Source of the DNA: Octopus vulgaris
Lineage: Eukaryota
Reading direction: 5' to 3'
Assembly (NCBI GenBank): GCA_951406725.2
Contig: OX597834.1
Location: 5,456,001-5,520,000 of the forward strand
Length of the DNA stretch: 64,000 bases
Both the position numbers and the translations under genes were made by a program. Positions 11,175 to 61,499 of this stretch are shown piece by piece (position 1 is the first letter of the stretch; each line of letters starts with the position of its first letter). The notes under the pieces are model-generated. The model saw only the letters and a program-made list of their open reading frames with translations. It was not told the origin of the DNA and did not search any database.

Positions 11175-11512
11175 TGTACCAGTGCGTAACTGGTACTTAT
11201 TTAATCGATCCCGAAAGGATGAAAGGCAAAGTCGACCTCGGCGGAATTTGAACTCAGAACGTAAAGGCAGACAAAATACTTATTTCTTTATTACCCACAA
11301 GGGGCTAAACACAGAGGGGACAAACAAAGACAGACAAACGGATTAAGTCGATTATATCGACCCCAGTGCGTAACTGGTACTATTTAATCGATCCCGAAAG
11401 GATGAAAGGCAAAGACGACCTCGGCGGAAATTGAACTCAGAACGTAGCGGCAGACAAAATACCGCTAAGCATTTCGCCCCTCGTTCTAACGTTTCTGCCA
11501 GCTCGCCGCCTT
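11175..11512 (-). mobile_element. SINE family B (Meta-domain-like), partial dimer
   Basis: One head GGCGGCGAGCTGGCAG and two bodies containing GCCTTTCATCCTTTCGGG.TCGAT on the minus strand. Confidence 0.85.
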
Positions 11513-12569: not shown

Positions 12570-13190
12570 TAGGGGTGACGACCTGACAGAATCCTTTGTG
12601 CGTTGGATAGATTTCTTAGCGGCATTTCTTCTGGTTCTTTAAGTACTGATTTCAAATCCCACTGAGGTCAGCTTTGCTTTTCATCCTTTCCGGGTTGATT
12701 AAATAAAGCACCAGATATGCACTGGGGTTGATGTCATCGACCTGCCCTCCTCAAAACCGCTGCTTTTATTCCAAAATTAGAAGGCTTTAAAGACGGTGCG
12801 CTGGCAAAATCGTTGGTTTCTTCAGGCTATCTATCTAAGGCTATATTAAGGCTTTGAGGTGGCAGAATCGTTAGCACACCGAGCAAAATGCTTAGTGATA
12901 TGTCATCCGTCCGCACCTTCTGAGTTCAAATTGCTGAAATCGACTTTGCCTTTCAAAATGCTGTCGATAGAATAGGTACCAGTTGAGTATTGGGGTCGAT
13001 GTAATCGCCTTACCTCTCCTCAGTAACATTTTTTTCCTGCTCTTTATGTTCTGGGCTAAAATCTCACTAAGGTCAAATTCCCTTTTCGTCCTTTCGGGGT
13101 CGATAAGATAAATACCAGTTAAGCAGTGGGGCTGCTGTAATCGATTTACTCTCTTCCCCTAAAATTGCTGGCTTGTACCAAGATTAGAAA
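12570..13190 (+). mobile_element. Cluster of old family-B-like SINEs
   Basis: Three diverged TTTCATCCTTTC.GGGT.GAT/GTCGAT modules. Confidence 0.65.
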
Positions 13191-13589: not shown

Positions 13590-14160
13590 TAATTTCGGAG
13601 GAGAGGTGAGGCGATTACATCGACCTCAATACTCAACTGGTACCTATTCGATCGACAGCGAAAGGGATGAAAGGCAAAGTCGATTTCAGCAATTTGAACT
13701 CAGAAGGTGCAGACAGATGAAATATCACTAAGCACTTTGCCCGGTGTGCTAACGACTCTTATTTCTTTACTGCCCACAAGGGGCTACACACAGAGGGGAC
13801 AAACAAGAACAGATAAATGGATTAAGTCGATTATATCGACTCCAGTGCGTAACTGGTACTTATTTAATCGACCCCGAAAGGATGAAAGGCAAAGTCGACC
13901 TCGGCGGAATTTGAACTCAGAACGTAGCGGCAGACGAAATACCTATTTCTTTACTACCCACAGAGGGGCAAACAATGAGAGACAGACGGATTAAGTCTAT
14001 TACATCGACCCTAGTACGTAACTGGTACTTAATTTATCGACCCCGAAAGGATGAAGGGCAAAGTCAACCTCGGTGGATGTGAACTCAGAACGTAACGGCA
14101 GACGAAATACGGCTAAGCATTTCGCCCGACGCGCTAACGTTTATGCCAGCTCGCCGCTTT
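13590..14160 (-). mobile_element. SINE family B dimer adjoining an older family-B-like copy
   Basis: Junction GACGAAATACCTATTTC at about 13933-13949; head at about 14110-14158. Confidence 0.85.
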
Positions 14161-14453
14161 AATATAACCTTAGATCGCCTGAAGAAAAATGGTATGGTCA
14201 GTGCTGCGATACTGCTAATCTTGCTTAAGCATCATGAGAGGAGATGCAAGTAGTAAGTGGGAGCGAATAAAGCAGTCAAACGATGGTGGGAAGCCTAAAG
14301 AATCGCAGACAAAAAGTCGATGAGATACAAATAGACATTCTGGTTTCCTCAAACATGAAACACAAGGAATTAATATTTATATTCATCTCTTGCGATCGTG
14401 TGATACCTCGAAGCCATTTCTTTGTTCTTTTAGATATATTAAATATATTAAAT

Positions 14454-39193: not shown

Positions 39194-39604
39194 TATTCGA
39201 ACTTTGTATTGACAGCAACAGTTACAAAAAAAAACCCATAATGATGGTGGTGGTGGTGGTGGATAGTGAAATGTGTAGTTTTTCTGTAAACTGAATTTTT
39301 TACATTACCTGTCACTTAGCACATGCGCATAAGTGCAATTATTTATCGTCTGCTCGCTTGAAAATTGATATTTGTTTATATACTGGGCTGGTGCTTAATA
39401 ATTGCGGCTGTTTTGTCAACAAATTATCCCAATCAGCAGAAGTTATCGACTAATATACTTGGACTTGTATCTGGCACGATTACAGACACATTAAGTATCT
39501 TGCTTCTGTTTAATGACCTAAGTTTACCATCAGTAAGTGTATCACCGTTCTTCGTTGAGATGTTGTTTAGGATTTTGGAAGAGTCACTCATATTACTTCC
39601 TCTC

Positions 39605-41136
39605 GCTGGACATCAACACCTCCACTTTTACCATATTTGAACTAACAGCAGCCACCAAGCAACAAAAAGCCTCGAAAGCATTTGGTCCCGACAACATCCC
39701 AGCTGTAATTTGGAAAGATGATAGATTTCACACACTTTTGCTCAACCTCTGCAACCACACACTTTCCACCTTTGTCGCTCCAAAGATTTGGCACCAATCT
39801 CAAATAATTCCAATACCCCAAAAAGGCGATTTATCCCTCGTCACCAACTACAGGGGTATATCTCTAATGTCAATTGCTGCAAAACTGTACAACAAACTGA
39901 TCCTAAATCGTCTTGTCCTTTTTGTTGAACCTTTGCTCCGAAAGAACCAAAATGGATTCAGACATGGGCGCTCAACGCTGAGCCAGATACTATGCCTACG
40001 CAGACTTATTGAAGAATCAAAAGCATTTAATCGCGATCTTGCAATGGTATTTGTAGACTTTTCTAAAGCGTTCGATTCTGTAGATAGGTACAAGATGTTT
40101 GAAATCCTTAAGCTCTATGGGATACCAGACAAAATCATTTCTGCCATCAAGGGCCTCTACACAGATACGTCTTCAACCATCTTAACCCCTGATGGAGAAA
40201 CATCATCTTTCTCAATCAAAGCCGTAATACTGCAGGGAGACACACTCGCCCCATTTCTATTCATCATTGTTGTTGATTATGTGCTACGTATGTCAGTTGA
40301 TACCATCTCTGGCAAGGGCTTTGAAATAAAACCAAGAAGAAGTTCCAGACACCCAGCTGAGTACTTGACAGACACTAACTTTGCTGACGACATCGCTCTT
40401 ATCAGTGATTCTCTCTCCAATGCCCAGTCTCTTTTACAATCTCTTCAACAAGCATCAAATTGTGTAGGTCTTTACCTCAATGAGGCCAAAACTGAATACA
40501 TAAACAAGTGCCTGTCCAACAGTGATTGGATCATCCATACTCTCAACAACGCGCCCTTAAATATGGTTTCTGATTATAAATATCTTGGGTCATACATATC
40601 ATCATCTGGAAAATACTTTCTATCTAGAAAGGGTATGGCCTGGTCAGCCTGTAATGACATGCTTAAGATCTGGTCATCAAATCTAAGTAGAGACTTCAAA
40701 CTTGAAATATTCAAAGTCACAGTCGAATCAATTCTACTATATGGCTCAGAAACCTGGAAATTATCAAAGAAGCTTGAGAGGCGGTTGGATGGAACCTACA
40801 CTCGCCTCCTTATGAGAGCTCAAAATCTTTCGTGGAAGCGTCATCCAACCAAAATGCAAATATATGGGAAACTACCACCTGTATCATCTCTTGTGAAAGG
40901 TAGGAGAGTCCAGTTTGCTGGACATTGTTGTAGAGCTGAAAAAGAAGTAATTTCTACTCTTCTCCTCTGGAAGCCATCTACTCGCAATACCAGAGGGCGC
41001 ACACTCTCCTGATGTAATCTCCAGGGATACAGGCATCCAGCAACAGGACCTCTGTAATGCCATGATGGACCGTGAAGTCTGGCGTAGCATGGTAAATTCC
41101 ATTGTCTCGACCACGGTCGAGACAATGATGATGATG
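39605..41136 (+). mobile_element. 5'-truncated RTE-clade LINE with reverse transcriptase ORF (to 41012)
   Basis: NYRGISL, QNGFR.GRST, FVDFSKAFDSV, QGDTLAP.LF, FADD, YKYLGS motifs; (ATG)n tail; TSD ACTTCCTCTC at 39595-39604 and 41137-41146. Confidence 0.93.
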
Positions 41137-52861: not shown

Positions 52862-53433
52862 CTCGGCGCGGTAACGATTCTTATTTCTTTATTGCCCACA
52901 AGGGGCTAATCATAGAAGGGACAAACAAGAACAGACAAAGGGATTAAGTCGATTACATCGACCCCAGTGCGTAACTGGTACTTAATTTATCGACCCCGAA
53001 AGGATGAAAGGCAAAGGCGACCTCGGCGCGGTAACGATTCTTATTTCTTTATTACCCACAAGGGGCTAAACATAGAAAGTACAAACAAGGACAGACAAAG
53101 GGATTAAGTCGATTACATCGACCCCAGTGCGTAACTGGTACTTAATTTATCGACCCCGAAAGGATGAAAGGCAAAGGCGACCTCGGCGCGGTAACGATTC
53201 TTATTTCTTTATTACCCACAAGGGGCTAAACATAGAAAGTACAAACAAGGACAGACAAAGGGATTAAGTCGATTACATCGACCCCAGTGCGTAACTGGTA
53301 CTTAATTTATCGACCCTGAAAGGATGAAAGGCAAAGTCGACCTCGGCGGAATTTGAACTCAGAACGTAAAGGCAGATGAAATACCGCTAAGAATTCCGCC
53401 CGGCGTGCTAACGCTTCTGCCAGCTCGCCGCCT
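52862..53433 (-). mobile_element. Family B SINE with three 160-bp tandem units
   Basis: CTCGGCG recurs at 52862, 53022, 53182 and 53342. Confidence 0.92.
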
Positions 53434-59488: not shown

Positions 59489-60643
59489 TGTCTTTCCATT
59501 TCTAATACGTCTTCCGGATCATGGTTTATTTAATTCTTTCCCGGCATTTTGTTCTTTTCGTGAGCAACAATAACATTTGATCTCATCAAGAAACAACATA
59601 AATAACTAAATGAATGGATGAATAATTAGAAAATAAAATGTAAACATGCACAAAAATAATCAGGAAAAAATTCCTGTTTGGAGCATAAGACTAAGAATAT
59701 CGTTGATGGCTGATTCGACTGGATATTGGAGCAGTAAGCAAAGATTTCATGCCTTCTAACTAGTTGCATCTGCTTTTCTTCTTTGTGTCTTTCACAAAGC
59801 CGCTAAACCTTTAAACAGCTCACTAGTATAACTGTAAACATCTACATGGCACGAGGACAAACCTCCCTAGCAATCAATTTATAAACGCTTGCCAGCTTGA
59901 AAATTTAAATTGAAATGTTTTCATACACGTGTCGCATTGATTGATGTCTTGTAAACGACTTGCACATGCAAGTGCTACCAGTCAAAAGCTCCGTATACCG
60001 GAAGCCAATAAGTGTATGGGGTCATCAGGCGAGAATGCGCGCCGTTTCGGGGCCTACCTCTCGACAGCATCAATGCTCACCTGTCCCCCTCACTGATATG
60101 AAGCCCCGCTGGCTAGATCAGCTGGTTATTAAGTTAAGCTCAATATCCTTCTAGCCATCGCTCATCGTCTCTTTTTCACCAAATCCAGTGGCTAGCCTTC
60201 TCCACTGTAGATTGGATATCGGTCATGGTGGTATTGTCTTTAAGATGAGTTAGGCCTAGCGAAAACAACAGTCGTCTCACACTGTGTCCAACGAACCCTC
60301 GATTGGAAAATGTTCCGCTTTCCAGCCTACGTCTTCATATTCCTCGAGGAGGTTTATATAACGGTTCAATTTTCATACTAAGTGGGCAACTGAATAAGTT
60401 GAATTCAGTGGGGCCATACATGTATAAACATTGCTGAAAGCGTTTAATGATGTCAAATAAAAACAAAAGGCATCAGCTCAGATTATTGGACGTTATTTCT
60501 TTAGTAGAGTAAATGAGCCGACAAATACGAGAACCAAGTAAACTGACAACCGAAATAGGCAAAGCGATGAGAGAGCGAATAGTCTAACACAGTAAATTCC
60601 GCGAACATGCTTCACATCTATTAGAATTCCTCAGCATGGTACC

Positions 60644-61426
60644 GATTTCTTTATTATCCACAAGGGGCTAAACACAGAGGGGACAAACAAGGACAGACAA
60701 ACGGATTAAGTCGATTATATCGACCACAGTTCGTAACTGGTACTTATTTAATCGACCCCCCGAGAGGATGAAAGGCAAAGTCGACCTCGGCGGAATTTGA
60801 ACTCAGAACGTAAAGGCAGACGAAATACCTATTTCTTTACTACCCACATGGGGCTAAACACAGAGAGGACAAACAAGGACAGACAAACGGATTAAGTCGA
60901 TTATATAGACCCCAGTGCGTAACTGGTACTTAGTTAATCGACCCCCAAATGATGAAAGGCAAAGTCGACCTCGGCGGAATTTGAACTCAGAACGTAGCGG
61001 CAGACGAAATACCTATTTCTTTACTACCCACAAGGGGCTAAACACAGAGAGGACAAACAAGGACAGGCAAACGGATTAAGTTGATTATATCGACCCCTGT
61101 GCGTAACTGGTACTTATTTAATCGACCCCCGAGTGGATGAAAGGCAAAGTCGACCTTGGCGGAATTTGAACTCAGAACGTAGCAGCAGACGAAATACCTA
61201 TTTCTTTACTACCCACAAGGGCTAAACACAGAGGGGACAAACAAGGACAGACAAACGGATTAAGTCGATTACATCGACTCCTGTGCGTAACTGGTACTTA
61301 ATTTATCGACCCCGAAAGGATGAAAGGCAAAGTCGACCTCGGCGGAATTTGAACTCAGAACGTAACGGCAGACGAAATACCGCTAAGCGTTCCGCCCGGT
61401 GTGCTAACGTTTCTGCCAGCTCACCG
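60644..61426 (-). mobile_element. Family B SINE tetramer (one head, four ~185-bp bodies) with 15-bp TSD
   Basis: Unit starts at 60645, 60831, 61015 and 61200; TSD CCTCAGCATG(G/T)TACC at 60629-60643 and 61427-61441. Confidence 0.93.
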
Positions 61427-61499
61427 CCTCAGCATGTTACCAGGGGAGAACGAGCTATATCAGAATGGTTTTCAGCGATACATTACAATGCATATATTC

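Follow-up and report, generated by a model that had tools for sequence, protein, structure and literature searches.

Tandem arrays of an octopus SINE and their probable origin by repeated insertion into the heads of existing copies

The tetrameric SINE array at 60629..61441 of the window (the whole stretch of 64,000 nucleotides analysed here) belongs to the tens of thousands of genomic places where head-less copies sit inside older copies at one exact spot. Such arrays have probably been built by sequential self-insertion with a 5' join made by homology, followed in places by secondary tandem amplification. Site specificity, nested insertions with their own TSDs, mismatches of age and head within arrays, and coupling between tail and site were all directly observed. 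The original prediction had derived the concatemer from a single insertion event, a reading that fits poorly with units of different age within one array and with TSD-flanked nests at the same site; self-insertion was not among its mechanisms.

The repeat family

Positions refer to the 233-bp majority consensus of 290 copies, called family B, and genome-wide counts to an assembly of 2.8 Gb in 227 contigs. The repeat is short, non-coding and interspersed, and far exceeds 100 copies (its tail 21-mer has 70,072 exact matches genome-wide). As expected of a tRNA-derived SINE, a TSD of 10–24 bp is detectable in 80 of the 133 headed elements that end in flank. ARAGORN gave no match on the repeat, and Rfam gave none up to E 10, so there is no ribozyme match. 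Motif searches of searchable paper supplements, meant to place the family among the octopus OR1/OR2/OK SINEs or a named core superfamily, yielded nothing. Two older families, A1 and A2, have head and core in common with B and carry different tails.

Several other classifications were considered and rejected. A complex (dimeric) SINE like Alu would be a fixed multimer acting as one unit, and here the number of units and their partners vary. The label of SINE-derived satellite (sSat) suits the internal units of long arrays and fails for the dimers and the tetramer. A non-LTR retrozyme or rolling-circle element was set aside on the lack of Rfam ribozyme matches and on the 6–7% that separates the tetramer units.

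Three SINE copies (L349, L351 and L353) lack the tail hairpin (CCCCTTGTGGG) and still lie at the position-50 site, suggesting that the hairpin is dispensable or was later lost.

Structure of the tetramer

The tetramer lies on the minus strand. It has a single head and four bodies of 183, 185, 184 and 186 bp, separated by three identical junctions:

61427..61441, minus strand: outer TSD, 5' copy, overlapping the AGG start of the head (from sequence)
61382..61429, minus strand: single SINE head, consensus positions 2–49, A-box half, 4 differences from the consensus
61199..61381, minus strand: unit 1, positions 50–233, fewest private changes (load 2/135, not significant), presumed latest insertion
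61014..61198, minus strand: unit 2, positions 50–233
60830..61013, minus strand: unit 3, positions 50–233
60644..60829, minus strand: unit 4, positions 50–233, adjoining the TSD, presumed body of the original host monomer
60629..60643, minus strand: outer TSD, 3' copy, starting GGTAC in element sense, in line with the family's GGT target bias

One head, four bodies, a 15-bp TSD and three like junctions had been described, and all were seen again, the TSD with one mismatch (CCTCAGCATGGTACC at 60629–60643, CCTCAGCATGTTACC at 61427–61441). TRF on the tetramer gave a period of 184, 4.0 copies and 92%. Exact copies of the junction GACGAAATACCTATTTC stand at 60819, 61003, 61188 and 13933, and a copy with 2 substitutions at 11270, which confirms that it recurs elsewhere in the window. 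Its placement had been described correctly as fixed and recurrent; the cut before CTATTTC was misplaced, the true join lying one base further (GACGAAATACC/TATTTC on the plus strand), with the tail AAAGAAATA followed by GGTATTTCG. Monomers had likewise been said to end GAAATAG(G). They end AAAGAAATA, and the following GG is target DNA, because 62 of the 80 detected TSDs begin exactly at the tail end; the G(G) thus reflects target bias.

The single promoter head needs a similar correction: there is one head, but it carries only the A-box half, while the B-box-like GAGTTCAAATTC is present in every body (both by the usual box consensus). The mini-palindrome described at the junction folds no better than shuffles (z -1.24), and RNA folding of a unit plus junction revealed no special structure (z -1.68). 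The head hairpin folds better (z -2.70).

The units are heteromeric, as described. They are 6.0–7.1% apart pairwise, and for each unit some dispersed copies are nearer than its siblings. One rare variant is common to each of the pairs 1–2 and 2–4, and a block of private changes shared among the units is absent. Three separate insertions fit the tetramer best, with exchange among units possible; their order is inferred from the family pattern only. Contigs from runs X1, X2, X5, X6 and X9 end within the repeat, and contigs of organisms B, C and D enter the last tail by only 25 bases. Among the public runs listed as carrying the repeat, none is of RNA.

Frequency of the junction at position 50

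The junction 24-mer has 24,098 exact matches genome-wide, against 0 for its reversed control, a recurrence well above chance. RNA-seq reads across the junction, suggested as a test for back-splicing, were rejected for this purpose, because a junction already genomic that many times makes the test unworkable. A contiguous sample of 1.064 Mb surrounding the window, taken without selection for junctions and perhaps richer than the genome average, contains 206 tails. SINE sequence follows 97 of them: 80 continue at position 50, 7 at 17–18 and 10 elsewhere, and the remaining 109 enter flank. The junction position is therefore recurrent and not random, as predicted. Counted by locus, the position-50 junction occurs in 49 of 133 (about 37%), above the 20% of copies at one target repeat that defines the SINEU type (threshold from PMC4494074); the 11 of 28 unselected Y loci described below exceed it too.

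Two related arrays lie in the window:

13598..14160, minus strand: head, B unit, position-50 junction (13933–13949), B unit, position-17 junction and older A1-type body
11179..11511, minus strand: dimer with variant junction (11270–11286), second unit 3'-truncated

An A1 element at 12817–13021 and its inverted paralogue at 13598–14187 have their upstream flank in common, and their bodies are 89.5% identical. The paralogue alone has acquired two B units, at site 17, so that the elements form a natural before/after pair.

Other sites and locations were also noted. A trimer at 52862–53433 of the window occupies the second site (AGAATCG, position 17), and its internal deletion is repeated in two near-identical 160-bp units; this is local duplication after self-insertion. 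In the C21:5,710,498 region (L049–L050), a B copy with a perfect TSD of 16 bp lies antisense within the core of another SINE, at GGTACTTATTTAATCG, and this core site is a third, minor self-target. In the first 8 Mb of C1, the matches listed put junction density at about 18 per Mb up to 5 Mb and at about 3 per Mb beyond that point. The fall hints that junctions are enriched toward the contig end, a pattern reported for reptile sSats.

Age and head differences within arrays

Among 92 seamless arrays the last unit is B in 56, A1 or A2 in 24 and unclassified in 12. A-type last units diverge about as A monomers do (0.101 vs 0.117 and 0.063 vs 0.074), and the first units of A-ending arrays stand at 0.047 and 0.029 vs 0.033 for B monomers. 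Heads in the B+A arrays are young (0.02–0.08 vs 0.08–0.19); the head therefore comes from the incomer and has replaced that of the host. Head–body linkage at position 45 in old arrays gave no signal.

Arrays made of B units only show no such gradient, and this counts against self-insertion: first and last units do not differ (0.030 vs 0.031, p=0.72, n=53), and a second test of the gradient agreed (0.043 vs 0.047, p=0.25, n=48). The flat profile may reflect one burst of activity. TSD mismatch was rejected as a clock (B monomers 0.045, B arrays 0.059, A monomers 0.051, B+A arrays 0.063), detection bias being too strong.

Further evidence comes from a young subfamily, Y, with 137 exact matches, found among copies selected for a junction after the tail. 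In 20 arrays the Y body is 0.4–1.3% from the Y consensus, while the next unit is 4–9% away and of mixed types and the head 4–10% away. Y head markers are present in 14/14 headed monomers vs 7/23 headed copies at SINE sites (p=2e-5), so that 16/23 of the latter, and 0/14 monomers, bear a foreign head. Unselected Y loci continue with GGT in 27 of 28 cases, and with position 50 in 11 of the 28, one script assignment, L288, having been taken out by eye. Three exceptions occur: at L288 a non-Y unit precedes Y, and L299 and L310 are Y–Y homo-arrays. Homology makes the 5' join in Y arrays, and the crossovers are spread across about positions 1–73.

These data bear on two mechanisms of the original prediction, both of which they exclude at these loci. 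Multimeric master RNAs retrotransposed whole are extremely unlikely as the general source of arrays. Pol III would likely read through the junction, which holds T3 runs at most, and L288 is a duplicated dimer; against such masters, near-identical young copies of one subfamily precede many different next units, and a recurring unit order is absent by eye among the arrays listed. The other mechanism is a template jump, in which reverse transcriptase copies RNA to position 50, stopped by the hairpin or by cleavage, and resumes on another SINE RNA at its 3' end. Position 50 does lie at the loop of the real head hairpin, units are heteromeric, the bulk age gradient is absent and heads in B+A arrays are young, all of which suit a jump. 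It is nevertheless quite improbable overall: arrays should carry the head of whichever RNA was copied last, yet 16/23 Y arrays have a foreign one, it needs old A-family loci as templates, and it gives no reason for the nests or for the GGT bias that unique flanks have as well.

Nested, double-headed insertions

The pattern of head, site and second head has 45 exact matches, with 8 further matches to an A1-type site. Among 48 double-head loci counted by hand, 39 resume at position 50 past a full-length insert, 5 do not and 4 have no B tail. A host-specific variant stands on both sides of the insert in at least 10 nests (e.g. L112, L125, L234, L269, L275 and L281), and many hosts belong to the A families. 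The nests are ordinary insertions with flanking TSDs, and they enter at the very base where the seamless junction lies. In some of them (L116/L117, L120, L136/L137, L139/L140 and L277) a 65-bp head-plus-TSD unit is tandemly repeated, giving at least 3 heads in a row.

Double heads are rare: none in 124 sampled arrays, and 3 clear cases (the script flagged four) among 23 Y copies. The difference hints at some later collapse of the second head, which may have been either avoided at insertion or lost afterwards.

The nests weigh against homing at the DNA level, in which gene conversion or repair from dimer loci would copy the junction and one unit into monomers with no reverse transcription. Scattered crossovers through head and core, B-type bases after the junction in 14/32 A bodies and a join near position 160 at L294 all accord with it, and gene conversion among Alu copies is on record, one study putting it at about 2% (PMC554112). 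DNA-level homing nonetheless leaves the TSD-flanked nests, the GGT bias at unique TSDs and the host-type sequence directly after Y tails without explanation, and 37% of loci would have to have been converted. It is an improbable alternative.

Local duplication in long arrays

Dimers and long arrays behave differently. In dimers the distance between first and last unit is 0.097, vs 0.101 for a background of random pairs, and only 1/28 falls below the 1st percentile. Units are thus not always nearer each other than dispersed copies, and dimers are as distant as random pairs, in agreement with the judgement of the original prediction that later local duplication fits less well. In longer arrays local duplication does operate: 26/32 internal–internal pairs are near-identical, closer than the 1st percentile of background. 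Local duplication lengthens some arrays as a secondary process.

Amplification in tandem is very improbable as the main origin of the arrays, whether it acts locally by unequal crossing-over or by rolling-circle copying of a single unit; SINE-derived satellites and retrozymes are the models for such a process. The internal pairs just described, the Y–Y homo-arrays and the tetramer distances (0.06–0.07, under the background mean of 0.10) speak for it. The dimer units, however, are unrelated, and this also tells against the predicted rolling-circle copying of a circularised body; no block of private changes is common to the tetramer units, Rfam finds no ribozyme, and random duplication would leave no single fixed boundary. 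Where neighbouring units belong to different subfamilies, amplification fails as the origin and acts only secondarily.

Target preference and tail subtype

TSDs start NNTAT. In unique DNA, GG stands at the TSD start in 35/59 T-tail copies vs 2/20 C-tail copies (p=1.7e-4; one other row left out), with a GGT background of 1.1%. Exact genome-wide counts show the same dependence within SINEs. The TAG-tail occurs 14,804 times at site 50 and 143 times at site 17, the CAA-tail 319 and 1,308 times, an odds ratio of 424 between tail subtype and site used. Since hosts offer both sites to both subtypes, the choice of site must travel with the incoming element. SINE heads make up only 57 of the region's 1,515 GGTAT sites, yet they received 11 of the 18 insertions of GGTAT type that the young subfamily made (hand count), so more than five bases must matter.

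Coupling of tail and site is what would be expected if a read-through RNA paired with its target; different helper LINEs would explain it too. B-type bases at 63–65, found in 14/32 A bodies in arrays vs 3/49, fit RNA read-through and could equally come from later contraction. Sequence after the tail in nests is mostly host-type, so it gives no direct sign of RNA read-through.

Candidate LINE partners

A young full-length APE-RT LINE lies at L174:1127–7230 (C21 about 6,051,100–6,057,200, minus strand), with intact 1159-aa frames, the Pfam domains Exo_endo_phos, RVT_1 and zf-RVT, and at least 150 near-identical matches in the genome. By its motifs it is presumably L1/Tx1-like. Its 3' end matches the SINE tail in 43/55 columns (hand count), and 28/30 copies are followed by GT(TATC)n, so that the TAT core is common to both and the site is not. 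This is the sole tail-sharing LINE found, and its residence in (TATC)n rather than in SINE heads counts against self-insertion. The SINE-tail motif GCCCCTTGTGGGCAA is also carried in its 5' UTR.

A second, unclassified family (L103:4219–4640, L109, L315–L334) has a 3' end matching the SINE tail in 46/58 columns (hand count). It stands before position 50 in three near-identical C1 copies only; 19/20 fetched relatives do not. Narrow searches for LINE tails at the SINE site returned SINE variants or nothing, and 9/9 picked candidates were SINE variants. A LINE family aimed at the SINE site, if there is one, would add weight to site choice by the protein. Another reverse-transcriptase family, RTE-like by eye, is represented in the window by a 491-aa open frame at 39512–41010 (approximate; C21 about 5,495,500 onward).

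Proposed mechanism

Under self-insertion, a tRNA-type SINE would repeatedly enter an existing copy in its head, at GGTATTT (position 50), adding one head-less unit each time. A LINE enzyme would nick the site and reverse-transcribe the SINE RNA starting at the tail end AAAGAAATA. The site might be favoured by a preference for a TAT core, common to related families, together with a GG preference tied to tail subtype. Pairing of the nicked strand with a read-through RNA (the tail plus GGUAUUU, made from masters that already occupy such sites) seems a slightly better account than specificity of the helper protein alone. The 5' part of the cDNA would then anneal to the homologous host head and cross over anywhere from about position 1 to 73, leaving one head. 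Rarely, annealing would fail and a double-headed nest with a 13–19 bp TSD would result, and some double heads may collapse later. The site would be regenerated each time, new units would likely stack behind the head, and the outer TSD and last unit would be the oldest parts. Unequal exchange would later amplify units in some long arrays.

Relation to known systems

The closest systems compare as follows. Crocodilian SINEU-3 also combines a strong SINE preference for a repeat target with tandem copies formed by sequential insertion; a Tx1-type helper (Tx1-Mar LINEs) is proposed, and co-transcription with the target is discussed as sharpening specificity. There, however, the target is Mariner-N4 and a TSD separates tandem copies, whereas here the target is the element's own head, units are head-less and the join is seamless (PMC4494074). 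Pairing between RNA and target in TPRT is described for the I factor, R1Bm, R2Ol and RTE-related SINEs. In family B, as in these systems, the TSD start correlates with the RNA 3' sequence; their guide is a 3' microsatellite or rDNA, whereas in family B head sequence of the element itself would serve, gained by self-insertion and dependent on subfamily (PMC6007223).

Squamate SINE-derived satellites resemble the B arrays in their tandem partial units, longer terminal unit and homogenisation in long loci. They are ascribed to duplication and have varied boundaries, unlike the one boundary, heteromeric short arrays and nested TSD intermediates found here; the jerboa Dip element, with multimers in nearly half of its copies, has full-length rather than head-less units (both from PMC10702118). 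In another mollusc, the clam S. broughtonii, TSD1-(SINE)n-TSD1 arrays likewise consist of one complete head, head-truncated repeats and one outer TSD, and are attributed to unequal recombination. They make up about 3% of copies and their internal units are tail-truncated too, against about 37% of loci and full tails here (PMC11481361). Alu gene conversion or replacement is similar in that young SINE sequence takes over an older copy inside the old TSD; unlike the B arrays, it is rare (about 2%), adds no unit and has no fixed site (PMC554112).

Biological implications

Self-insertion of this kind would be a new form of target-specific SINE retroposition. Searches of the open full-text literature brought up no account of a SINE that targets its own head, and an earlier account is possible. 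Self-targeting would let an element's own sequence steer its landing place. Tentatively, and with somewhat less than even confidence, target preference could even be heritable and RNA-encoded, the RNA of a subfamily carrying past its tail the sequence of its last landing site. If so, masters once located in SINE heads would send daughters to SINE heads in a self-reinforcing homing loop, and subfamily-specific addresses (position 50 vs 17) would override the microsatellite specificity of the helper LINE.

With self-insertion as the origin of the arrays, more than a third of the loci sampled for this abundant SINE would have arisen by insertion into its own kind. Such insertion would provide a harmless landing site, re-use old promoters, recombine heads and bodies between families and seed satellite-like arrays. 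It would explain how SINE modules are shuffled and how SINEs turn into satellites, both usually put down to template switching or unequal recombination. Assumptions in dating and in SINE-marker phylogeny would be broken, as several events of different age may lie within a single TSD. Natural events number in the tens of thousands and fall on two subfamily-specific sites, which would make it directly testable whether RNA–DNA pairing or the endonuclease chooses the insertion sites of non-LTR elements.
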